Shown: positions 2,330 to 28,055 of the stretch, piece after piece
Layout: the number at the start of each line of letters is the position of its first letter
Position numbering within the stretch: position 1 is the stretch's first letter
Source of the DNA: Candidatus Woesearchaeota archaeon
GTDB lineage: Archaea > Nanobdellota > Nanobdellia > Pacearchaeales > GW2011-AR1
Direction: 5' to 3'
Length of the DNA: 64,000 nt
Assembly (NCBI GenBank): GCA_964576755.1
Contig: CAZNUV010000005.1
Location: 2,762 to 66,761 of the forward strand
The notes under the pieces: generated by a model
The model's database searches: none
Told to the model about the DNA's origin: nothing
What the model saw: the letters and a program-made list of their open reading frames with translations, nothing else
Made by a program: the position numbers and the translations under genes

Positions 2330-4333
2330 ATGAAAAGAATTATCTTGTTTATATTGTTCCTTCTTTTGATTACATTTAATTTTACAACTGTTTTTTTAAA
2401 TTTAAGTTATGAGAAAAATATTCTCTTTACAGGTAGAGCATCTACAGGAGCAATAACTTTTACAATTATTGGAGAAGAAGATATTACAATTATTAGTCCA
2501 TTAAATACTACCTACAGTTTTGGATTAAGTTTAGGGCCCTATCCATTGGAATTAAATGTTACAAATAATACATTCTTGCCAGAATCATGGTGGTATTCTT
2601 TATGGGATATGAAACATACCGAATTAAGCGTGAATAATCAAACATTTTCTCCAGATACAATGATAAATGCAACAAGGTGGGATAATAAATTATATGTTTA
2701 TGCAAACAATTCTTCTGGATCGGTTTTTAGTAATTATGTTTCTTTTTATATTGATGTTGGAAATCATGCTCCAGTTATTGAAGGAGACACATTAAATCAA
2801 ACAATCTATGTGTGTGAAGACGATTATCTAAGATACTTTTTTAATGCAACAGATATTGATGAAGAAGTATTGACTCCTTCTCTTTCAGATTATGCTCCAT
2901 TTTATATTGAAAGGAAGAATCCTGCAGTTAATTGGACTGCTTGGATGTTTGAAATTTATTCAGGTATTATTTATAACAATCTGCTTAGTGAAGCAAACAA
3001 AGATTCATTTGGAAATTGGTGGATTTATCCAGAAACTGTAGGGGTTACTGATTCTGGGGCATTATCAGACACTAAAGAGATAAATATAACTATTATTGAA
3101 AGGAATGATGCACCAATCATTCAAACAATTGGTGTTCAAACAATATGGGTCCAAGGAATTGGTACTCATTTTTATAAACAAGTTCAGATAACTGAAGAAG
3201 AGGGTGGCATTGTAAACTATAATCTTAGTTTTTCTGGACCAGAACTTTTTGAAATCAGTTCTAGCGGGCTTATGGATTTCACAGCAGATGAAAGTTATTT
3301 GAATAATGGTAATCCAGTAACTTATGATTTAACTGTTTGTGTAAATGATACTGGATTAGATTACCCCCATGAATATATTGATACATACTGTTTTCAAGAT
3401 GGAAGTTCTCAATATGATTGTGAAACTTTTGGATTAACTATAACCAATGATAATAGAAATGTATCAATTATTGGTTATTCTCCCACAGAGTTATTTTTTA
3501 ATTTAGTCGGAACAGAACAATTATTTTTTGAGGTAATTGGATATGATCCTGATGGAACAATTCCAGATGCTTATTGGTATTTAGATGATGTTCTTTTAGA
3601 ATATGATTCTGGAAGTTCTATTAATAATTTGTCCTATTCTTTTGCTTGTGGAATTGCAAGCGGGAATCATACATTTAAGGCAGAGATTACTGATGGTTTA
3701 TCAAATGATTCTGTTGAATGGATTGTAAATCACACTTCAACTTCATGCCCATTACCTCCTACTCCTGGAGGCGGAGGTGGAGGTGGAGGTATTGTTTGTA
3801 CTGAAAAGTGGGCATGTGAAGAATGGAAAAAATGTAAATTCTTAAAAGATTCTTATTTAGATAGTATTGGAGAACAAGATTATCTGTTATTACAACAATC
3901 TTGTTCTGATTTAGGTTACCCTGTTTGTGGATATCAAAAAAGAGATTGTATTGATTTAAATAATTGTAGTAATCAAATACCACGAATTCCAAAACCAGAT
4001 GATTTAATTTCTTGTTATTACACTGATAATCCGGATTGTTCAGATGGTATTAAAAATTGTCATCATGGTTCTTGTGAACTAGGTATAGACTGTGGTGGTT
4101 TTTGTGATCCTTGTCCTACTTGTTCAGATGGTATTCAAAATCAAGGTGAAAAGGGAATTGATTGTGAAGGTCCCTGTTCAAAAATTTGTCCACCTGAATT
4201 TCCTTTAAAAACATCTTCAATTATAATTTATCTGTTAATATTGTTAATTATCTTAATTCTAGTTTTAATATTGTTTAGAATATTCTTATTAGTTAAAAGA
4301 AGAAAGAAATCAAAAAGAGAGGGCCACAGGTAA
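2330..4333 (+). CDS. Large surface protein: signal peptide, repeated beta-rich domains, poly-Gly hinge, Cys-rich C-terminal modules, TM anchor
   Basis: 667-aa ORF with many N-x-S/T sequons. Hinge is PPTPGGGGGGGG. Cys-rich modules follow (CTEKWACEEWKKC...RDCIDLNNC, and twice CSDGI(K/Q)N...GIDC(G/E)G.C). C-terminal TM plus KRRKK tail. Confidence 0.6.
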   Translation: MKRIILFILFLLLITFNFTTVFLNLSYEKNILFTGRASTGAITFTIIGEEDITIISPLNTTYSFGLSLGPYPLELNVTNNTFLPESWWYSLWDMKHTELSVNNQTFSPDTMINATRWDNKLYVYANNSSGSVFSNYVSFYIDVGNHAPVIEGDTLNQTIYVCEDDYLRYFFNATDIDEEVLTPSLSDYAPFYIERKNPAVNWTAWMFEIYSGIIYNNLLSEANKDSFGNWWIYPETVGVTDSGALSDTKEINITIIERNDAPIIQTIGVQTIWVQGIGTHFYKQVQITEEEGGIVNYNLSFSGPELFEISSSGLMDFTADESYLNNGNPVTYDLTVCVNDTGLDYPHEYIDTYCFQDGSSQYDCETFGLTITNDNRNVSIIGYSPTELFFNLVGTEQLFFEVIGYDPDGTIPDAYWYLDDVLLEYDSGSSINNLSYSFACGIASGNHTFKAEITDGLSNDSVEWIVNHTSTSCPLPPTPGGGGGGGGIVCTEKWACEEWKKCKFLKDSYLDSIGEQDYLLLQQSCSDLGYPVCGYQKRDCIDLNNCSNQIPRIPKPDDLISCYYTDNPDCSDGIKNCHHGSCELGIDCGGFCDPCPTCSDGIQNQGEKGIDCEGPCSKICPPEFPLKTSSIIIYLLILLIILILVLILFRIFLLVKRRKKSKREGHR

Positions 4334-4556: not shown

Positions 4557-7500
4557 TGATGGGCAAGAAGAGGGATAATAGTAAATTGGTAATTTTTATA
4601 ATTTTTATAATTAGTATTGTCCTTGTAAGTTTTTTAGTTTTAAGTTTATCTAATGATGTTGTTTGGATAGGGAATACTTTAAATTATAGTTCTATAGAAG
4701 ACACAGAGTTCTTACATAATTTTAGTGCAAACATAACTGGAACCGGATCAAATATAACTTTTTCTATTTCAGAAGGGGGAGGAAATAATGTTGAATGGAA
4801 TGGGGCAGTTGTTGATTATAGTGATATTTTTTCTTGGATTTTTATTTCAAATGCTTCTATTGGAAACTTAAGTATAAATGTAGTCAATGATAGTCAGACT
4901 GGGAAATTTTCTCTTCCTGTTAAGGTTGCTTGGACAAATACAAGTGAATCTCCTCCAAATAACAATTACGGAAGTGTTGTGGCTTTTACGTTTATAGTTA
5001 ATGCAACTAATGATGCGCCTAATTTTACAATAATTAATAATAGCTATAATCTCAGTGAAAATGAAGATTTTATTGCATATATTAATGCTAGTGATGAGGA
5101 GGAACATTACCCCCTAATTTTTAATATCACTTGGGAAGATACATGTATTCATGCTTCTTGGAGTACTAGAACTAATTGTAGTTTATTTGAGGCTTTTAAT
5201 TATTCAGATATTTCTACATTATTAAACTATACCCCTACAAATAATGATGTAGGAGTTTATTCTGCAAACATTTCGGTTATGGATTTTGGAAATAGCACTA
5301 GTTATGGTTGTCCACATGAGTATTGTGATGAAGCAACATATAACTTAAACAAAACTACTTATCATTCTCAACTAATTGAATTTAATATTCTTTCTTCTTT
5401 ATCTATAAATATTTCTAATTGTACAGGCCTTACATTATTTGAAGGTTCTGAATTTACTTGTAATATCAACATTACTACTCAAGGAGAAACAGACACAATT
5501 AATGTTTCTACATTGGCTTCTATTAGAAATTATGATGCTGGATATATCTCCAACTTAAGTTGGTTTCATGCAAATAGTTCTGAAACTGCAGATAATTTTT
5601 CAAAAACAGTATTAATTAATATAACTCCTCAAAATACTGAGGTTGGAAATTGGAGTATTAATTTTTCAACAATTGATATAAACTCTGGGGAGATTACAAG
5701 TGAGTTAATTTATCTTTATGTCAACCAAACAACTTCGTCTAGTCCAATTTTAGATGTGACTTATTTGACAAATAATCAAACTTCAGTTAATACTAACCCT
5801 GTAATTAATATTAGTGTTCAAGATAATGATTTTTTGATTCCAGATAAAGTGGACTCGTTTAATGAAACTCTTGTTTTCAATGTTCAGGTCTTGAATCGTT
5901 CTGATTTAAGCCAAGAATTATCTATAACTGGTTTTGATGTAGATATACTGCATATGCCGGTTGTAGAAAGTAACCATTTAACAAATCAAACTACTGCAAA
6001 AATTGATTTTACACCTCTAATAGGGGATGTAGGGGAATATACTATCAATTTAAGTGTAAGTGATAATTCTACTAATTTAGACCTTGATATGTTCAATTTG
6101 ACCATAGTTTCAAATAATTATCCTGATTGGAATCAAACAAATTATACATTCTATTTAACTGTTAATTCAACTTTATCAACAACAGAATCTCTTGAAGAAA
6201 TCTATGGGGTTATAAATTTGAGTGATACTTGGACTAATGATTCTGATGGAAATACCTTGACATTTACAAATTCTACAAGTGCTTTTCAGAGATTTAGTCT
6301 TTCAACAGGGGGAATACTTAATTTTACCCCATACAAGGAAGATGTTGGTTATTGGAATGTAAATATTACTGCAGATGATGGGTACTTAACAAATACCACT
6401 GAATTTTTCTTTAATATTTCAAATGTAAATTCTAATCCATTTATAGATAATTCCACTTTGTTAACAAATTCAAATGCTTCAGCGAGTGGCCTTGCTATAA
6501 TAACTCAAGAGGATAATTATACTCAAATTCTGATTAGTATATATGACGAAGATTTTAAAATAACAACCGCTCAAAAAGGAGTTTATAATGAATCTCTTGT
6601 TCCTACAACAATAATTGAAGGGATAAATTCTAGTTTGTTTGAATTTGAATTAATTACTTTACCTACACCATCATATCCAAATAAGACTATTTACCAAGCG
6701 TTGTTTACTCCTAGAAAAGATGATGTGGGCCTTTATAATGTAACTTTAAACATTACTGATAATTCTTCTGTGGTGGATTCATTTGTATTTAATATTACTA
6801 TAATTTCTTTAGACCATAATCCTGTTCTAGACAGTTCTATAAATCAAACTTCTGCAATAAACCAGAGTTTGTATTATCGAATTAATGCAACAGATATAGA
6901 GGATGGGAATACTACAATTAATGGGGGAAATACAAATTTTACATTTAATTATTCTATGTTATCTGGAACAAATTTATTTAATTCTACGACATTTAATTCC
7001 ACCACTGGAGAATTCAATATCACATTTAATGATTCACAATTTGGAACATATCACATTAATGTAACTGTAAATGATTCGGGAGGGTTAGAAGATTCTACTG
7101 ATTTTTGGATAAATGTTTATGGATTTCCTACAATAAATAGTCCGGGCATAGGCTATGATTTTAATTTAACAGAAAATGTTACATCTAATCTAAAATTTAC
7201 AGTGAACCATTCTGTTCAAGATAATCTTACTTATCTTTTTTATACAAATGATATTTTAAGATATAACCTTTCTTATTATGGGAATAATACTAATTTAACT
7301 TGGCAGTTTACTCCGAATTTTACTGAAGAAACTTATGGTAATTTAATAAATTTAACCCTGGTTGTTTTTCCCTCAAATTCTGATTTAGAAAACATGTCTA
7401 ATTTTAATATTACTCAAAGTTGGAGTTTAAATATAAGCCATTCAAATTATCCGATTAATTTTACTAGTTTTATTGGGAGTCAGTCTGCTAATTCTGACCA

Positions 7501-8500
7501 GTATATTATCTTAAATTTAACAGAATATTTTTTAGATATAGACTATCTTGATTATATATATAATCAAACAGTCAATTTTACTATTGTTAGTAATGCTAGC
7601 CCTAGTTATATTGCTCCATATTCTTTAGCTTATCCTAATTGGACCTTGGCATTTACTTCTCCGAGTGCGGTTTCAGAATTAATAACTATCAATGCAGTGG
7701 ATATTAATCTTACTAATTCATCACATAACCTCACCAATGTTTCCAGTAATCAATTTAGAATTACTTTTACAACACCTTCGACAACTCCTGTTCCAACCTC
7801 TGGAGGCGGAGGGGGTACTATTGTTAAACCAGTTATCATCCGAATTGTGTTTCCAGATGATATTATCATTACAGATAATTCTTGGATTACAGTTCCGTTC
7901 CAAATCAAAAATATGGGTACTTATGATTTAAAAGAAATTCTTCTCAGTAGTCGAGTATCCTATAATAATGTGGAGATAGAGGATATAAAAACCAATATGC
8001 AAGTAGAATCTATAGACTTATTAAAACAAGGAGAGTATAGGAATCTAAGCTTATTTGTTAAGGCAGATACTTCTCGTTCTGGAAAGTATAAGATTACTGT
8101 TTATGCAAATGTAACTTCTCCTAAATTTGAAGATTGGGGGGATTTCTATATTGATTTAAGACTAAGTCCTGAAACTGAAGCAGAAAAATTATTAATATTT
8201 ACAGAGAAATTAATCTCAGAAAATCCTGAATGTTTAGAACTAACAGAACTAGTTAGAGAAGCAGAAAGTCTTTTTGAAGAAGGATTCTATACTGAAGCTA
8301 GTGCAAAAGCTGAAGAAGCTGTTGATGCATGTGAAATAGCAATTTCTAAAAATATTCAAAGGACATATTCAAGAGAGGATATACAAGAAAATGCATATAA
8401 GGTTTCGATTGCAACAGTTGCAATTCTTATTGCAGGAATGGCTATTTATTTTTATAAAAGAGTAAAGTTTAATAAATCAAAAAAAGATGAATATATATAA
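4556..8500 (+). CDS. Giant (1314 aa) Asn/Thr/Ser-rich surface protein with C-terminal TM anchor
   Basis: Uninterrupted 3.9-kb ORF. N-terminal TM/signal (LVIFIIFIISIVLVSFLVLSL). Dozens of N-x-S/T sequons across repeated ~100-aa segments. Hinge TPVPTSGGGGG, then a beta-sandwich-like domain, a helical region and a TM (VSIATVAILIAGMAIYFY). Confidence 0.65.
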   Translation: MMGKKRDNSKLVIFIIFIISIVLVSFLVLSLSNDVVWIGNTLNYSSIEDTEFLHNFSANITGTGSNITFSISEGGGNNVEWNGAVVDYSDIFSWIFISNASIGNLSINVVNDSQTGKFSLPVKVAWTNTSESPPNNNYGSVVAFTFIVNATNDAPNFTIINNSYNLSENEDFIAYINASDEEEHYPLIFNITWEDTCIHASWSTRTNCSLFEAFNYSDISTLLNYTPTNNDVGVYSANISVMDFGNSTSYGCPHEYCDEATYNLNKTTYHSQLIEFNILSSLSINISNCTGLTLFEGSEFTCNINITTQGETDTINVSTLASIRNYDAGYISNLSWFHANSSETADNFSKTVLINITPQNTEVGNWSINFSTIDINSGEITSELIYLYVNQTTSSSPILDVTYLTNNQTSVNTNPVINISVQDNDFLIPDKVDSFNETLVFNVQVLNRSDLSQELSITGFDVDILHMPVVESNHLTNQTTAKIDFTPLIGDVGEYTINLSVSDNSTNLDLDMFNLTIVSNNYPDWNQTNYTFYLTVNSTLSTTESLEEIYGVINLSDTWTNDSDGNTLTFTNSTSAFQRFSLSTGGILNFTPYKEDVGYWNVNITADDGYLTNTTEFFFNISNVNSNPFIDNSTLLTNSNASASGLAIITQEDNYTQILISIYDEDFKITTAQKGVYNESLVPTTIIEGINSSLFEFELITLPTPSYPNKTIYQALFTPRKDDVGLYNVTLNITDNSSVVDSFVFNITIISLDHNPVLDSSINQTSAINQSLYYRINATDIEDGNTTINGGNTNFTFNYSMLSGTNLFNSTTFNSTTGEFNITFNDSQFGTYHINVTVNDSGGLEDSTDFWINVYGFPTINSPGIGYDFNLTENVTSNLKFTVNHSVQDNLTYLFYTNDILRYNLSYYGNNTNLTWQFTPNFTEETYGNLINLTLVVFPSNSDLENMSNFNITQSWSLNISHSNYPINFTSFIGSQSANSDQYIILNLTEYFLDIDYLDYIYNQTVNFTIVSNASPSYIAPYSLAYPNWTLAFTSPSAVSELITINAVDINLTNSSHNLTNVSSNQFRITFTTPSTTPVPTSGGGGGTIVKPVIIRIVFPDDIIITDNSWITVPFQIKNMGTYDLKEILLSSRVSYNNVEIEDIKTNMQVESIDLLKQGEYRNLSLFVKADTSRSGKYKITVYANVTSPKFEDWGDFYIDLRLSPETEAEKLLIFTEKLISENPECLELTELVREAESLFEEGFYTEASAKAEEAVDACEIAISKNIQRTYSREDIQENAYKVSIATVAILIAGMAIYFYKRVKFNKSKKDEYI

Positions 8501-8512
8501 TCGAGGTGAAAA

Positions 8513-9529
8513 ATGAAAAAGGAAAAGAAAGTTTTACATAAACATAAAAATAAATATTCTAAAGGACCATCTAAAAATTATTCAGATATACAAAAAATCA
8601 TAAAAGAATTAGAAGAAGAAATGTCTAAGATTATTGTTGGGCAAAAAGATATTATCCATGGATTGATTAGGGCCATTTTATGCAATGGTCACGTTCTTGT
8701 AGAAGGTGTTCCAGGTATTGCTAAAACATTAATAATTAGAGCTATGGCAAGAGTTCTTGGTTGTGATATGAAAAGAATTCAATTTACTGTAGATTTACTA
8801 CCTACAGATATTACTGGAATTACTACCTACATTCCAAAGAAAGGATTTGATGTTATCAAGGGTCCAATTTTTGCTAATTTTATTATTGCTGATGAAATAA
8901 ATAGAAGCCCTCCTAAAACTCAATCTGCTTTATTAGAAGCTATGCAGGAAAATTCAGTAACTATTTCTAAAAAAACATATTCCCTGCCCCTTCCATTCTT
9001 TGTAATGGCCACACAAAATCCTATTGAAACCACTGGAGTTTATAATCTCCCTGAAGCACAAGTTGATAGATTTTTGTTTAAGTTAATTGTAGAATATCCC
9101 AATTTTGAAGAAGAAAAATATATCTTGAATCAGAATGTAACTATACGAAAATTTGATAGTTTTCATTTAAAACAGATTTTAGACCCAGAGACTATAATCT
9201 CATTTCAAGAAAAGGTTAAGGAAATTTATACTTCTGAAACAATAAAAGAATATATTGTTAAAATTGTAGATGAAACAAGAAATAAAGATTTTGAAAAAGC
9301 GAGTTATATCTCTTATGGTGCTAGTCCAAGAGCCTCAATTGCAATTTATATTGCTTCAAAAGCGGAAGCATTGATGAATGGAAGAGATTATGTAATTCCT
9401 AGTGATGTCATGACTGTTACATATCCTGTTTTAAGACATAGAATTATTTTAAACTATGAGGCTGAAGCTGAGAAGGTTTCTACAGATCATATTATCAAAC
9501 ATATTCTAGATAAAATTAAAATACCTTAA
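8513..9529 (+). CDS. moxR: MoxR-family AAA+ ATPase
   Basis: Walker A VEGVPGIAKT, Walker B IIADEINR, and the MoxR-typical PKTQSALLEAMQE and ATQNPIE...LPEAQVDRF motifs. GAGGTGA Shine-Dalgarno upstream. Confidence 0.9.
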   Translation: MKKEKKVLHKHKNKYSKGPSKNYSDIQKIIKELEEEMSKIIVGQKDIIHGLIRAILCNGHVLVEGVPGIAKTLIIRAMARVLGCDMKRIQFTVDLLPTDITGITTYIPKKGFDVIKGPIFANFIIADEINRSPPKTQSALLEAMQENSVTISKKTYSLPLPFFVMATQNPIETTGVYNLPEAQVDRFLFKLIVEYPNFEEEKYILNQNVTIRKFDSFHLKQILDPETIISFQEKVKEIYTSETIKEYIVKIVDETRNKDFEKASYISYGASPRASIAIYIASKAEALMNGRDYVIPSDVMTVTYPVLRHRIILNYEAEAEKVSTDHIIKHILDKIKIP

Positions 9530-9533
9530 TCAA

Positions 9534-10424
9534 ATGGCAAAAAAATTTGAATTGAATTTCCCAAAGGCTATTTCTGAATTTGAAAGCGCATTAAAAACTT
9601 TCCAGTTACAGAAAGTAGTTTATAGAAGGCTCTTTCGTGCAAAAGGTTTAGAATTTAATTCTTATAGAAAATTTGAACCTGATGATGATGCAGCTTTAAT
9701 TGATTGGAAAGCTAGTCTTAGGGCAAATGATTTACTTGCAAGAGAATACATAGAAGAAGGAGATAAAGAGATTTATTTTATATTGGATGTTAGTAATAGT
9801 ATGCTTTTTGGTTCTAATAAAAAGTTAAAATCAGAATATGCTGCAGAAATGTTTGCAGCCTTAGCACATTTAATTTTAACCTCCAGAGACAAGGTAGGCT
9901 TGATTATGTTTTCTAATAATCTTGTTAAGATTATTAGGCCTGGAAATGGATTAAAACATTTTTTTATTCTTTCAAAATTTGTATCAAATCCAGAACTTTA
10001 TGGTGGTGGAATGGATTTAGAACAAGCATTATTAGAGGTTTTCAAGTTAGTACAGAGCTCATATGCTGCAGTAATTATTATCTCTGATTTTATTCATATA
10101 AAGACAAATTTTGCTAGAATCTTAAGAATGATTTCTCTTAAATATGAAACTATTGCTTTAATGGTTAGAGATAAATTTGATGAAGAATTACCAAATATAG
10201 CCCAACAATTAGTTATTCAAGACCCTTATTCAAAAAAACAATTAGTTATCGATCAAAAATTAGTTTCAAAAAGATATAATGAAAATGCATTAAGACAAAA
10301 ACAAAAAATGGAAAAAATATTTCAGGAATCTGGAGTAGATTATTTAGATTTAAAAATAGATAAATCTTTTGTAATTCCATTAGTGGCATTTTTAAAATCA
10401 AGAGCAAGGGAGGCTATTGCATAA
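9534..10424 (+). CDS. DUF58 (vWA-like) protein, MoxR partner
   Basis: 296-aa ORF 5 nt after moxR. DUF58-typical core YRKFEPDDDAALIDWKASLR and FILDVSNSM. The MoxR-DUF58 gene order is canonical. Confidence 0.8.
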   Translation: MAKKFELNFPKAISEFESALKTFQLQKVVYRRLFRAKGLEFNSYRKFEPDDDAALIDWKASLRANDLLAREYIEEGDKEIYFILDVSNSMLFGSNKKLKSEYAAEMFAALAHLILTSRDKVGLIMFSNNLVKIIRPGNGLKHFFILSKFVSNPELYGGGMDLEQALLEVFKLVQSSYAAVIIISDFIHIKTNFARILRMISLKYETIALMVRDKFDEELPNIAQQLVIQDPYSKKQLVIDQKLVSKRYNENALRQKQKMEKIFQESGVDYLDLKIDKSFVIPLVAFLKSRAREAIA

Positions 10425-22445: not shown

Positions 22446-22459
22446 ATAGCCCCACCAGG
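22446..22459. repeat. 14-bp copy of the tRNA-Gln 3' end (putative distal att site)
   Basis: atagccccaccagg at 22446-22459 is identical to 27775-27788. That stretch covers the T-stem 3' half, acceptor 3' strand, discriminator and one flanking base of tRNA-Gln. Confidence 0.65.
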
Positions 22460-22759: not shown

Positions 22760-23017
22760 TTAAGCTTCTTTATACATCCACATTAGCATAGGCATAACCT
22801 CCTCATTCTTTAGATTATTGACTTTATTTAGCAATTCTTTAAAATCTCTGCAAAAAACAAGTTTATAAGAAAAAGAAGATCTTTTTTCTTTAAGCTGAGG
22901 AAACTCATCAATTATTTCTTTTTTTAGTCTTATAACATTCCAAGACTGAAAACTTTCTGCATAAGCTATTTTTCCTTCAATATCAATTATTCTCTTTGGT
23001 GCAAGTGTTTTTTTCAT
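22760..23017 (-). CDS. Hypothetical protein (element cargo)
   Basis: 85-aa ORF with no recognisable motifs. Confidence 0.35.
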   Translation of the reverse strand: MKKTLAPKRIIDIEGKIAYAESFQSWNVIRLKKEIIDEFPQLKEKRSSFSYKLVFCRDFKELLNKVNNLKNEEVMPMLMWMYKEA

Positions 23018-23145: not shown

Positions 23146-24090
23146 ATGATAGATGAGACAGACAAGCTTATCCTCTTTGAACTACTTCAAGATTGTAGAC
23201 AGCCTCTTTCTAAAATTGCAAAGACAGTAAAACTATCTCAACAAAGAGTTCATTATAGAATAAAGAAACTTGAAGAACAAGGAGTAATAAAAAAATATAC
23301 CATTAACATTAATTATCCAAAACTAGGATATAGTAGACATTCATTATACTTAGATTTGCTAAGTGTCGACGGAAAAGAAGTTGATAAATATCTTAAACAT
23401 ATTACAGACATAAATGAAGTAAGTTGTTGTTATATGCTACATGATGTTTCAGAATGGAAAATGTATATTTCAGTATGGACAAAAAATATTGAGAGATATG
23501 ACGAGATTCAAACTAAAATAATTTCCAAGTTTCATAAACACATTAAAAATTATATTTCTTTTCAGAGTATTCGTTCGCACACTTACTTTGTTGCAAGAAT
23601 GCTCAATAGAAAAAAAGAAGCTAAATGTGATATAAAAGGAAATCCTGAAAATTTTGAATTAAAAGATATTGATTGGAAAATAATAAATAAGTTAAGAAAG
23701 AAGTCTAATATTCCTATTTTAGAATTAGCTAATTCATTAAAAGTAGATGTAAACACTATAAAAAGGAGAATTGATTTTTTACTTAAAGAAAATATTATTG
23801 AAAGATTTTATACCATTCTTGATTTAAAGAAATTAGACTTGAGAGAGTATACTTTTATTTCTAGGATAAACCCTTCACATAATCATGAAATTGAAAAATT
23901 TATAGAATATGCTAAGAAAGATTATCATTTTGGAATTATAATAAAAGCCGTAGGTTATGTTAATCTTTATTATGCTTTTTATGCTAAAGATAATGCAGAA
24001 TTAAAGTCAATAACTGCGAAAGTAGATAAGATGTTAGGTAAAGCAGTTTTACATACATATAAAATTGAAGTTGAGGATATGATTAGCTAA
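23146..24090 (+). CDS. Tandem Lrp/AsnC-type HTH transcriptional regulator
   Basis: Two copies of the Lrp/AsnC HTH pattern (DKLILFELLQDCRQPLSKIAKTVKLSQQRVHYRIKKLEEQGVIKKY and IDWKIINKLRKKSNIPILELANSLKVDVNTIKRRIDFLLKENIIERF). Each is followed by an RAM-like segment. Confidence 0.7.
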   Translation: MIDETDKLILFELLQDCRQPLSKIAKTVKLSQQRVHYRIKKLEEQGVIKKYTININYPKLGYSRHSLYLDLLSVDGKEVDKYLKHITDINEVSCCYMLHDVSEWKMYISVWTKNIERYDEIQTKIISKFHKHIKNYISFQSIRSHTYFVARMLNRKKEAKCDIKGNPENFELKDIDWKIINKLRKKSNIPILELANSLKVDVNTIKRRIDFLLKENIIERFYTILDLKKLDLREYTFISRINPSHNHEIEKFIEYAKKDYHFGIIIKAVGYVNLYYAFYAKDNAELKSITAKVDKMLGKAVLHTYKIEVEDMIS

Positions 24091-24184: not shown

Positions 24185-24838
24185 ATGGGATTAAACTTAA
24201 ACGGAACAAGAGAACCATACAAAGAATTTTATGGTAGAAATACAGATCAAATGTCAGCTTTAATAGCTGATGCTAGAGTTCCAATGAATGTTTCTCAATT
24301 AATGCAAAAAAGACTTGATGTAAGAAATGCTGATGCAAAAGTTAAATCTGCTTGGATTGATAATTATTTTGATTCAGGAGATGCAGTTGTTTATCATCCT
24401 AACGGAGATGTAAAAGTTGTTCTTGATTCTCAAACATTAAGAGAAATGACTCCTGAAACTCAGAGAAATGGCGGAGCATTAGTTATTGGAGAAGAAGTTT
24501 ATCAAGCATTACAAGGTGAAATATTCAAGAAAGGAAAACTAGGAAAAATAAATGAATGGCTTACAAGAGCACAAGTTAAAGCTCACCCTGTTTGGAAAGT
24601 TTTAGCAAGAGGTCAAACATTACTTAATGATTATACTGATTTTACAGCTGGAGAATATCAAGCAAGATTTGCAAAAGATACACCTTTAGATGATATAACA
24701 ATAATGGGATTTTTCCCAGGTTCTTGTGGCGGAAAGTCTCCAGAAATGCGGGCGTTCTATGTCTATGGGCTTGAGTACGGGTCTGATGTCATTGGCGGGG
24801 GTGCCTTGACTGGTGGCTTGGTCGTCTTGTTGGGTTAG
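24185..24838 (+). CDS. DGR variable (target) protein, apparently truncated by a 1-nt deletion in the VR
   Basis: 217-aa ORF whose last 30 codons are the VR. No signal peptide or TM helix. A stop-free continuation in the +1 frame runs to 24996. Confidence 0.75.
   Translation: MGLNLNGTREPYKEFYGRNTDQMSALIADARVPMNVSQLMQKRLDVRNADAKVKSAWIDNYFDSGDAVVYHPNGDVKVVLDSQTLREMTPETQRNGGALVIGEEVYQALQGEIFKKGKLGKINEWLTRAQVKAHPVWKVLARGQTLLNDYTDFTAGEYQARFAKDTPLDDITIMGFFPGSCGGKSPEMRAFYVYGLEYGSDVIGGGALTGGLVVLLG
24748..24837 (+). repeat. DGR variable repeat (VR)
   Basis: Aligns with 25182-25272. Every substitution falls at a template adenine (17-18 of 26 A positions). No non-A position is substituted, and there is a single 1-nt indel. 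Confidence 0.85.
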
Positions 24839-24851
24839 CACCGGAGGTGCT
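24837..24851 (+). promoter_or_regulatory. GC-rich hairpin immediately 3' of the VR (IMH/cruciform-like)
   Basis: agcacc-gga-ggtgct forms a 6-bp stem with a 3-nt loop, inside a locally GC-rich stretch (gcaccggaggtgcttagtgcgccgggtagtggtgc). This stretch is absent downstream of the TR. Confidence 0.4.
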
Positions 24852-25181
24852 TAGTGCGCCGGGTAGTGGTGCTTCAGCAGTACAAAAATATACTATGGCA
24901 GATTTACAATCATTAGATGCAGGTATAACTAGATTAGAAGGCATTGTCTTGCCAGAATTAGTAAAACCATTTAGAGATATAAGAAAAAAACTTTAAGTCT
25001 TCTATATAAATTCTTATAAACTCTTTATTTTATTTAAAATTACCTAGCTAACTATGCAACAAGGATGCATGGAGCAGACTAGGCTACATGCTCTTTTACT
25101 AAAGCAGAAATGCTATAAAATACAGCTACAACAGAAATGAAGTGGCAATGAAGATAATTTCAAAGTAGAAGAGCTACTATG

Positions 25182-25272
25182 GCGGGCGTTCTATGTCAAT
25201 AGGCTTGAGAACAGGTCTAATGTCAATGGCAGGAATGACTTGACTAATGACAATGGTCGTCTTGTTGAATAA
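25182..25272 (+). repeat. DGR template repeat (TR)
   Basis: Intergenic copy of the VR, 23 nt upstream of the RT-like ORF. In the VR frame it reads RAFYVNRLENRSNVNGRNDLTNDNGRLVE* with seven AAY codons. Confidence 0.85.
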
Positions 25273-25295: not shown

Positions 25296-26522
25296 ATGTA
25301 TGAACAACTATGCTCACATGAAAATCTTTTATTAGCTTTTAAAAAAGCAAAAAAAGGAAAGACTAAGAAAGATTATATTATTAAATTTAAACGAAATTTA
25401 GAGAATAATTTAATAACTCTAAGACAGGAATTAATTTCTCAAACATATAAACCAAAACCACTTAAAACATTTATTGTTAGAGATCCAAAAACAAGAAAAA
25501 TTTCTAAATCTAAATTTAGAGATAGAATTATTCATCATGCTTTGATAAATATCATTGGAGAGAATAGCCTCAAAGATTTAATTTCTAAAATTTTAACTAA
25601 ATTAAAGGGTGATCGGGCAAGGGCTAAGATAATTGAAAAACAAATAGAATATACTGAGGATTGGAAAGAGAAAAAAGAAACCTCATTAGATCTTTTAAAT
25701 CATTTAATTGAAAAAAGCTTTATTGATAAGGAAGATATAATTAAACCCCTTGGAACATCTCAGATTTTTGCCCTCTACTGCTTTCCTACTACTCCAATCA
25801 TTTCAAAAAATGGAAAAATAAAGTATAGTTTAAATCGAAGAATTTATCCTAATTTTCTAAAAAAATTGGGTTTTATAAGATTACATCTTAGACGGGGGCT
25901 TTTTTATGTCATCCCTCGTGAAAGATTAATCCCTTCTTTACAAAATACTTTTTACTTGAAGCAGTACATTCTTGAAGAGATCGAAAAAACATTTCCAGTA
26001 GAGTGGGAACGATTTTTAAAGGAGCTTAAAAGGAAAAAAAGTCTATTAAATGAATACAATTCCTATAAAAATAAAAGTTATAAGCAGGAATTAAAATTTA
26101 ACATCTTGCTTTTGAATACAGATATCTCAGAGAATAATGTGGGGTATTTATATGGTGAAAGAACGTTTACCAATGATTTTCATAATTTTCTAAATAATCA
26201 GTTAGACTTAAAAAAATTAAATTTTCCTAGAAGTGTTAAAGCAAACATTAGCGAATATATGAAAAATATCTCTATAGTGTTTTTCTTCAAAGGAGAAAAT
26301 ACTACCAATATACAAAAGATTAATGACGTAGAACCAAAATTAAAGAGTGGGCTTTCAATAATCAAATGGACAGATTATTTGGATAAGAATCAAGAAGAAA
26401 TTGCATCTATATTTAAATTGGGTAATCTATCCGAATCTCGAGCAAAAAAATACTCAGAATTATTAATCAAAAAGATTGAAGTATATAGAAATGCCCTTAG
26501 AGAATTAAGAATTAATCTATAA
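25296..26522 (+). CDS. DGR-type reverse-transcriptase-like protein (N-terminal RT motifs present, no YxDD seen)
   Basis: Residues 1-90 match the DGR/retron-type RT N-terminus (ENLLLAFKKAKKGK...YKPKPLKTFIVRDPKTRKISKSKFRDRIIHHALINII). Later there is only faint colinearity (PLGTSQIFALY versus the canonical GxxxSQ motif). No DD pair occurs anywhere in the 408 aa. Confidence 0.65.
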   Translation: MYEQLCSHENLLLAFKKAKKGKTKKDYIIKFKRNLENNLITLRQELISQTYKPKPLKTFIVRDPKTRKISKSKFRDRIIHHALINIIGENSLKDLISKILTKLKGDRARAKIIEKQIEYTEDWKEKKETSLDLLNHLIEKSFIDKEDIIKPLGTSQIFALYCFPTTPIISKNGKIKYSLNRRIYPNFLKKLGFIRLHLRRGLFYVIPRERLIPSLQNTFYLKQYILEEIEKTFPVEWERFLKELKRKKSLLNEYNSYKNKSYKQELKFNILLLNTDISENNVGYLYGERTFTNDFHNFLNNQLDLKKLNFPRSVKANISEYMKNISIVFFFKGENTTNIQKINDVEPKLKSGLSIIKWTDYLDKNQEEIASIFKLGNLSESRAKKYSELLIKKIEVYRNALRELRINL

Positions 26523-26529
26523 AATACAT

Positions 26530-27687
26530 TTAACTTTCATTCCCCACAATCATAACACCCTTTTTAACAAGCTGGGCAATAACCTTCATCTGCTTTTCCA
26601 AAACATCAACACGTTCTTTTAAAATTTCTTTTTCATTTTCTGATCTAGCAAGTTGCTTTTCAATCTCTGTCTTTGTAACATCTACTAACATATCTTCCTC
26701 ACTAATAGTATCTCTCATGCCCAAAAACTCAGAATAATAATGAATCTCTTCTGATTTTTTCCAACCGAATCTATACTTTAAAGCAGATTCAGATTTATAC
26801 CTTGGAAGCCAATAACAGCAACTATTATGTCTAAAATCATATAAGGATAGTTTGGAATAATTTTCTCCTGCGGGACTTATTTTATCCCCAAGAACTCTCT
26901 TTGCTAATCTTTTCAAGTAGCGGTTTACAACCTGCGAACAGACGCTGAATAAATAATCACTTGATTCAAGATTTTTAGTTTTTACATACTCTTTAATAAG
27001 TTCTGAACAGAGCATTAATTTTATTCTTCTTCCAAAAGTTTTGCTCACTTCCTCTCTTATCTTTAATTCTTTGAAATCATTAAAAAAGTCTGAAACTTTA
27101 ACATTCACTAATTCTGTTGGAGACCTTATCCCTGTGTCAAATACAAACATCATCATCACCTTATATTCATGTTTCGATTCATCACATAATTTTTTCACTT
27201 CTTCTTCAGTTAAATAAACCCATTTTGGTTTTTCTGTTCTTGAATCAAGATCTAGGGTAATATCTGTAATTTCTATCTTCTGTTTTTTGCTTACTTTTTG
27301 ATGCCAGTGCCAGAATGCTTTGAAAACCTTCCCTTGAGTTTCAAGAGAGGTGTATGATTTTCCATCCACCCTCTTTATTCCCCCATTTCTCATCTCTGCA
27401 AAGAAAGTAATAATCTGATCTTCATTAACTTCTGTTAGCTTAATTACTCCATAAAATTCCTCAAATTTTTTAGCAAAGAATATCATCTTCTCCTTTAATG
27501 TAAAAAGTCTAGCAAAAGTTCTTGGACCCCTTAAACTCCCTGTTGCTATATTCAAACCTTTTTCCATATCATTAAGATATCTTAGAATTATTTCAGAATT
27601 CTCTACAGAAATATCTGGAATTCTATCTTTAACTCTTTCTTTCCATTTAAGGTATCTTTCTTTATGTTTCCACGGATCTATTTTCAT
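26530..27687 (-). CDS. Tyrosine recombinase / integrase
   Basis: Catalytic-domain pattern: FDTGIRSPTEL (Arg I), LYDFRHNSCCY (box II Arg-His), and FGW...IHYYSEF (GH/W...Y). Has a coiled-coil C-terminal tail. Sits next to the tRNA-Gln att site. Confidence 0.75.
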   Translation of the reverse strand: MKIDPWKHKERYLKWKERVKDRIPDISVENSEIILRYLNDMEKGLNIATGSLRGPRTFARLFTLKEKMIFFAKKFEEFYGVIKLTEVNEDQIITFFAEMRNGGIKRVDGKSYTSLETQGKVFKAFWHWHQKVSKKQKIEITDITLDLDSRTEKPKWVYLTEEEVKKLCDESKHEYKVMMMFVFDTGIRSPTELVNVKVSDFFNDFKELKIREEVSKTFGRRIKLMLCSELIKEYVKTKNLESSDYLFSVCSQVVNRYLKRLAKRVLGDKISPAGENYSKLSLYDFRHNSCCYWLPRYKSESALKYRFGWKKSEEIHYYSEFLGMRDTISEEDMLVDVTKTEIEKQLARSENEKEILKERVDVLEKQMKVIAQLVKKGVMIVGNES

Positions 27688-27775
27688 CTTAGCATAAAAC
27701 CCACCTGATTTATATTTTCGTGGCGGATTTATGCCGAAACAAACCTGAACCCTTGATTTTGGTCAAAAGGGTAAA

Positions 27776-27848
27776 TAGCCCCACCAGGATTCGAACCTGG
27801 GTCACAAGGTTCAGAACCTCGTATGCTTGACCACTACACTATGGGGCT
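27776..27848 (-). tRNA. tRNA-Gln (CTG)
   Basis: Minus-strand cloverleaf. Acceptor AGCCCCA/TGGGGCT (the A1-U72 pair is typical of archaeal tRNA-Gln), anticodon stem CGAGG/CCTTG with loop TTCTGAA, T-arm CCAGG-TTCGAAT-CCTGG. Confidence 0.85.
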
Positions 27849-27863
27849 ATAAGACAACCTAAC

Positions 27864-27983
27864 GGTTTTCTTATGAACTTTCCCTTGAGATTGCCTGATT
27901 GACAACTAAGGTTTTCTTATGAACTTTCCCTTGAGATTGCCTGATTGACAAATAAGGTTTTCTTATGAACTTTCCCTTGAGAT
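27864..27983. repeat. 46-bp tandem repeat, about 2.6 copies, upstream of tRNA-Gln
   Basis: Copies start at 27864, 27910 and 27956 (ggttttcttatgaactttcccttgagattgcctgattgacaa[c/a]taa). The two full copies differ at one base. The third diverges after gagat. Confidence 0.85.
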
Positions 27984-28055
27984 AGTCCAACAACCTTAGA
28001 TTTATAAAAAATCAGGTAAAGCAAACTTTATAAAGCTATTTTTTGATATTCTCAT

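Follow-up and report, generated by a model that had tools for sequence, protein, structure and literature searches.

The DNA analysed here, referred to as the window, is a 64,000-nt stretch of low-GC DNA (about 30% G+C) from a Candidatus Woesearchaeota archaeon, and it holds a DGR locus with a puzzling RT-like ORF, which starts like a DGR RT and shows no YxDD catalytic motif. Is this a complete RT with an unusual active site, or is it an RT at all? A preliminary description, made by eye, considered it catalytically dead or extremely divergent, and offered three explanations: a trans-acting RT elsewhere in the genome, an RT-derived protein with a new role, or the limits of by-eye motif reading. 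Archaeal housekeeping genes are carried (e.g., for tRNA-splicing endonuclease), and the best protein matches to the window are to Nanoarchaeota and Pacearchaeota. The genome is metagenome-assembled, with 709 kb in 21 contigs and 86.7% completeness. The comparisons described below indicate that the ORF is very probably a chimeric pseudogene, in which an RT stump was fused in frame, by deletion, to the remnant of a gene of another family, ORF380. The ORF and its two parts are as follows.

25296-26522, + strand: the questioned ORF, 408 aa
25296-25559, + strand: DGR RT remnant, codons 1-88, with the N-terminal extension and RT motifs 1-2
25560-26522, + strand: ORF380-family remnant, codons 89-408, the 3′ 85% of the gene without its putative membrane-anchor region of ~57 codons

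When the ORF was searched against 5.8 billion proteins, two disjoint sets of relatives were recovered: PF00078 RTs, which match its N-terminal part, and seven proteins without a Pfam family (P0002-P0008). The RT set comprises hundreds of proteins from DPANN archaea that match the first 21-29% of the ORF at 57-83% identity. The start of the ORF is thus that of a DGR RT, as had been recognised by eye, and residues 1-88, with motifs 1-2, are 65-83% identical to DPANN RTs over 21-24% of the ORF and are matched in several ways, far above chance: residues 2-88 align with residues 9-95 of bRT (8ub7; E = 8.6e-12), residues 1-89 match a PHROG RT family (E = 2.7e-27), and residues 1-88 match a PADLOC RT model (E = 4e-12), while the group II RT match in NCBIfam is weak and covers residues 9-87. 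The similarity to RTs ends at residue 88-89 in all of these comparisons, as it does in blastn. In the RT alignment the ORF stays highly identical as far as ...RIIHHALINIIG, after which identity disappears; with nine RT relatives aligned, the sequence of the ORF after ALINIIG is wholly replaced, and motifs 3-7, both catalytic-Asp motifs among them, are missing. Pfam assigned no family to the ORF, and RVT_1, which models the RT palm region, was unmatched even at E ≤ 1. The preliminary description was therefore right that the RT next to the TR is catalytically inactive. It was also right that the 408 aa contain no Asp-Asp pair (all 15 Asp residues are isolated), and the strings it quoted are found in the ORF at residues 51 (YKPKPLKTF...ALINII), 151 (PLGTSQIFALY), 176 (KYSLN) and 199 (RRGLFYVIP). 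No sequence of the ORF fits the DGR-specific (I/L)GxxxSQ motif 4; PLGTSQIFALY falls in the ORF380 part.

The remainder of the ORF belongs to a different gene. P0002-P0008, of 331-409 aa, match 66-83% of the ORF at 43-68% identity in the protein search, and residues 89-408 of the ORF run colinear with their residues ~57-376, to the C-termini (E = 1e-138 to 1e-71). Identity to the ORF380 part is 68% for P0002 (E = 4.8e-138) and 40-52% for P0003-P0008; it sets in at about residue 91 (SLKDLI...) and runs to the last residue, and all 80 invariant columns of the ORF380 alignment are kept in the fusion. An exhaustive HMMER search with residues 89-408 (E ≤ 0.001) recovered 55 representative clusters of stand-alone proteins, mostly of ~360-420 aa, in which the match begins 55-125 residues into the protein. 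Two hydrophobic segments were found in Kyte-Doolittle windows near the N-terminus of each of the 11 intact members inspected; the fusion has none. The family was unmatched in Pfam, PHROG and PADLOC scans. Its members occur in mobile or defence surroundings, beside DNA methyltransferases and integrases, IS transposases, the restriction enzyme MamI and series of small ORFs. In one complete genome the gene has hsdM on one side and hsdS on the other, within a type I restriction-modification operon, and a PIN protein and AbiTii are encoded next to it. Only four of the 151 genomes of the order contain the family. ORF380 is an undescribed family and a candidate membrane-anchored defence gene. Intact or homologous ORF380 genes lie at the following positions.

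L012, 648-1778: ORF380 gene
L035, 9834-11009: ORF380 gene
L008, 8001-9146: ORF380 gene

The homologue P0008 (L007, 8001-9136) is itself split, into 331 aa and 51 aa, within a 539-kb contig, so that decay of ORF380 is not confined to the window.

The preliminary description had also pointed to faint colinear echoes of RT motifs in the second part of the ORF. Taken literally, they would make the ORF a complete but extremely divergent RT, in which PLGTSQ stood for motif 4, KYSLN replaced YxDD and RRGLFYVIP served as motif 7. The likeness is superficially colinear, and MAFFT does place PLG--TSQIFA-LY under PLGNLTSQFFANVY. However, the region belongs to a well-populated family of another kind, whose members have N-termini of their own and no RT part, and the residues that make up the echoes vary among its closest members (PFD or PSI for PLG; SK, HE or TK for SQ). 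A comparison by hhalign of the ORF380 family (28 sequences) with DPANN DGR RTs (19 sequences) gave a probability of 0.6%, which marks the echoes as chance resemblance. Structure prediction gave no clue to function. The AlphaFold2 model of the fusion, built from an eight-sequence alignment, is poor (pLDDT 62, pTM 0.40, residues 1-106 below 50), and a Foldseek search of the PDB with it returned only meaningless TEAD matches (TM 0.1), with no RT and no polymerase among them. An intact palm domain was thus recovered by none of Pfam, AlphaFold2 and Foldseek. The chance that the ORF is a divergent RT is negligible; beyond residue 88 it is a different gene. The by-eye reading was right that motifs 3-7 are absent; none of the three explanations offered with it is the best.

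The two parts meet at nt 25559/25560, after Gly88, as determined by codon-level comparison, in which residue 89 of the ORF onward corresponds to residue ~57 of P0002 onward. Similarity at the DNA level to the RT genes of five relatives ends at 25559-25562 in blastn, and the fused frame is open through all 408 codons. A metagenome-assembled genome in 21 contigs leaves room for the suspicion that the join is a mis-assembly of two unrelated contigs. However, the same 408-aa protein, with matching neighbours on both sides, is present on at least ten contigs, six of which represent six samples (three from ENA, two from JGI and one from Logan), and one 10-kb contig spans the entire region. This recurrence effectively refutes mis-assembly, the likelihood of which is close to nil.

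The RT stump is preceded by a target gene and the two repeats of a DGR.

24185-24838, + strand: DGR target gene, 217 aa, shortened by a frameshift in the VR
24745-24838, + strand: VR, with 14 substitutions relative to the TR and a 1-nt deletion
24820-24996, + strand: displaced C-terminal tail of the target (GRLVGLAPEVLSAPG...RKKL*), open in another frame
25179-25272, + strand: TR, 24 nt upstream of the RT start codon

The nearest DGR relatives, L013, L014 and L015, share 74-84% nt identity with the window over the target, the spacer, the TR and the 5′ end of the RT gene. L013 and L014 have the order target, TR, full-length RT (RVT_1 and HTH_40), a spacer of ~270 nt and tRNA-Gln(CTG), with no integrase in between; their RT genes are full length but split. 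Their targets are 54% identical to that of the window over 215 aa and run ~58 aa further in frame. L013, the closest relative with an RT gene of intact length, has two further remnants to the left of its target: the C-terminal end of an integrase, 52% identical to that of the window, and a fragment of a methyltransferase. Such elements seem to have come to rest at this tRNA-Gln site repeatedly.

L013, 1062-1235, - strand: remnant left of the target
L013, 1299-1418, + strand: remnant left of the target

The other half of the fusion has its counterpart in L012, where an N6/N4 DNA methyltransferase gene is followed by an intact ORF380 gene of 376 aa and then by a convergent, homologous integrase gene; the DNA of this locus is 72% identical to window positions 25632-27078.

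The fused ORF also lies close to a tRNA-Gln gene, within a stretch that has the layout of an integrated island.

22446-22459, + strand: 14-nt direct repeat of the tRNA-Gln 3′ end (ATAGCCCCACCAGG), with an exact second copy at 27775-27788
22760-23017, - strand: 85-aa ORF in the island, without a match in Pfam, PHROG or PADLOC
23146-24090, + strand: 314-aa double winged-helix (AsnC/Lrp-type) regulator (Pfam HTH_24, E = 3.8e-22; HTH_AsnC-type, E = 4.9e-19)
26530-27687, - strand: tyrosine integrase, 385 aa, convergent with the fused ORF
27775-27849, - strand: tRNA-Gln(CTG), found by ARAGORN, the integration target, with its 3′ end facing the integrase

The integrase matches Pfam Phage_integrase (E = 8.5e-9), an XerA-type model in NCBIfam and a PHROG integrase family (E = 1.9e-16). 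About 0.01 matches to the 14-nt repeat are expected by chance, and two matches occurred in none of 100 shuffles; position 22446-22459 is therefore a probable distal copy of the attachment site and the left end of an island of ~5.3 kb. Both marks of a tRNA-integrating tyrosine-recombinase element are thus present, an integrase by the 3′ end of a tRNA and a direct repeat of that end, and the copy brackets a 5.3-kb stretch in the manner of a tRNA-integrated island. The 85-aa ORF is a possible accessory gene of the DGRs in this archaeal clade: in blastn, window positions 22808-23012 match L016 at 5456-5591, 8443-8578 and 9810-9989, and in L016 and L017 each of the two DGR target genes is directly preceded by a homologous small ORF. 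The homologues in L016 are at the following positions.

L016, 5457-5651: homologue of the 85-aa ORF
L016, 8444-8638: homologue of the 85-aa ORF

The junction itself was also considered as an attachment site, because AATAGCC at 25566-25572 resembles the core of the tRNA end. This was rejected: AATAGCC consists of ordinary ORF380 codons (E-N-S-L here, E-S-S-L in P0002), ORF380 is contiguous with the upstream methyltransferase gene in the intact relative L012, and nothing resembling the missing N-terminus is encoded in the 87 nt that separate the integrase from the tRNA. Just past the 5′ end of the tRNA-Gln, on the chromosomal side, lie three tandem 46-nt repeats (27864-28001; 100%, 98% and 72% identity).

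From these relatives, a history of the chimeric pseudogene can be proposed. The starting state would have been a DPANN DGR by tRNA-Gln(CTG), in the order target, VR, TR and RT, with an RT of ~470 aa that carried RVT_1 and, at its C-terminus, HTH_40. Next, an integrase element like that of L012, with methyltransferase, ORF380 and convergent integrase genes, would have entered the same tRNA-Gln. A subsequent deletion would have extended from RT codon 88/89 to ORF380 codon ~57, removing ~80% of the RT (motifs 2a-7 with both catalytic-Asp motifs, the thumb and HTH_40), the attachment site in between and the left-hand part of the element; what was left of the two genes would by chance have been joined in frame. 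Where the deletion began and ended, and how much DNA was lost, we infer from relatives, because the ancestor of the locus is unsampled and the nearest RT relatives are only ~83% identical. The order of events and the involvement of two tandem elements are likewise inferred, with a single composite element that suffered an internal deletion as the alternative. By either history the RT is truncated, not divergent.

The target gene has been damaged as well. The VR and TR differ, over about 90 nt, by 14 substitutions, all 14 of which fall on TR adenines. The preliminary description had called this adenine-only divergence clean; it holds for every substitution, but the VR is also one base short, by a deletion at a template adenine near 24814 (TR GACAATGG, VR GGC-TTGG). 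As a result of this deletion the target stops at 24838, and the conserved tail is left out of frame. The displaced tail, of ~52 aa, is still 58-59% identical to the tails of the L013 and L014 targets. The deletion may have been an error of the last retrohoming event. The VR, the spacer and the TR are base-identical between the window and four assemblies from other samples (L001, L002, L003 and L005), compared as consensus sequences over the parts that their contigs cover. A search of the genome with the TR, in which A was written as N, found the VR and the TR as the sole matches, so that there are no remote targets. Three short contigs start in or just past the VR (L003 at ~24775, L004 at ~24894 and L005 at ~24802). 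Low coverage at the VR, or a mixture of strains that differ there, may account for these starts, which could hint at heterogeneity in the population.

A perfect adenine signature next to a broken RT invites the idea that the DGR is still served in trans, by an RT at another locus, in a co-resident virus or in an unassembled part of the genome, using this TR. The absence of any mismatch outside adenines is consistent with such a supply, trans-acting RTs have been raised for comparable loci (Paul et al., 2015), and with a genome 86.7% complete an RT could, strictly speaking, still lie on the unassembled part. However, a PF00078 profile search of the 709-kb assembly gave no matches, and the full-length RT P0012 matched it only through its residues 1-100, at this very ORF; the latter search also disposed of a split gene or trans-splicing, as it showed no other piece of RT. 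Moreover, the genome has no further copy of the VR or TR, the VR is identical across five assemblies that cover it fully or partly, and the target that such an RT would diversify is frameshifted in the VR and has lost its conserved tail of ~52 aa. A trans-acting RT, one of the explanations offered by the preliminary description, is thus highly improbable. With only an 88-codon stump and no other RT fragment in the assembly, the evidence says that this DGR has lost cDNA synthesis, and that it is an ordinary, recently dead DGR. What a working DGR requires is present only in part: the adenine signature between TR and VR is there, while the RT and the target are both broken. The adenine-only pattern would then be a record of past activity, and the lack of mismatches at other bases suggests that the loss was recent.

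Could the fusion nonetheless be a working new protein? The RT segment might have replaced the membrane anchor of ORF380 and given the protein a new location or partner, for example by binding TR RNA. The intact 408-codon frame, the retention of all invariant ORF380 residues, the inherited RT start codon and upstream region, and the identical protein from several samples would all agree with this. Conversely, an in-frame join has a probability of one in three, and the 5.8-billion-protein search found the fusion in one 100%-identical cluster, that is, in one population, and in no second lineage. Furthermore, the pLDDT of residues 1-106 is below 50, the RT fragment is without the rest of the fingers and the palm, its normal packing partners, and the methyltransferase that stands beside ORF380 elsewhere is missing here. 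The open frame and the kept invariant residues fit a very recent event, as they also fit continued selection on the fusion. We consider a new role very unlikely, and the same applies, somewhat more strongly, to the specific proposal that the fusion is expressed from the TR/RT transcription unit of the DGR and kept by selection as a soluble, re-targeted defence-island protein, possibly tethered to TR RNA. If the fusion were selected, a fragment of a retroelement would have been co-opted as a new domain.

The locus, read as a chimeric pseudogene in a dead DGR, can be placed among known systems. Paul et al. (2015, Nat Commun, PMC4372165) gave the first description of DGRs in DPANN archaea; they also reported RT-less 'partial DGRs' in Nanoarchaeota and considered both fossils and trans-acting RTs as explanations. 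The window resembles these partial DGRs of Nanoarchaeota and other DPANN in having the signature of adenine mutagenesis without a functional RT beside it. It differs from them in that the cause of RT loss is visible, as an 88-codon stump fused to a mobile-element gene, and in that the target is frameshifted too. With BPP-1 bRT (PDB 8ub7 series) the locus has in common a TR placed immediately before the RT gene, but bRT is complete (328 aa), whereas the ORF lacks all that follows motif 2: both catalytic-Asp motifs, the thumb and the (I/L)GxxxSQ motif among the rest. The ORF also resembles the HTH_40 RTs of DPANN archaea (P0012 and P0013, and those of L013 and L014), with 67-83% identity over the first ~90 residues; those proteins have ~465-560 aa with RVT_1 and HTH_40, of which the window retains ~19% of the length. 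With L013 and L014 it further shares a closely similar TR and target and the position by tRNA-Gln(CTG). Its surroundings are like those of tRNA-targeting tyrosine-integrase islands in archaea and bacteria, with an integrase by the 3′ end of the tRNA and a 14-nt repeat 5.3 kb away, but unlike typical islands of this kind the one described here, known from its sequence, is a decayed mosaic in which a DGR is combined with a portion of a defence-type element. As a DGR remnant, and not a variant RT, the locus adds one more case to a known kind of decay.

Several consequences follow. A false lead is removed, as there is no YxDD-less RT here and a new catalytic mechanism is unnecessary. The proposed history would make the locus a clean and datable case of DGR death in ultra-small archaea, through a collision of elements at a shared tRNA site followed by deletion. 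For surveys of DGRs there are two warnings: a perfect adenine-only TR/VR signature is no proof of current activity, and an 'RT-like' ORF called on its first 90 residues may be a chimera.

The relatives' RT genes show a further peculiarity. A tract of poly-G or (GA)n recurs at a fixed spot just upstream of KGMPLGN, as listed here.

L013, ~3436-3446: G11
L014, ~1155-1162, and L015: G8
L028, 981-989: G9
L026, 2026-2031: G6
L027 and L023: (GA)n

The tract splits the RT gene into two frames in six of the seven tract-bearing loci, and a search across the order found the RT split at residue ~175-195 in several of the 13 RT-positive genomes. This simple-sequence tract looks like a slipped-strand on/off switch of the RT.
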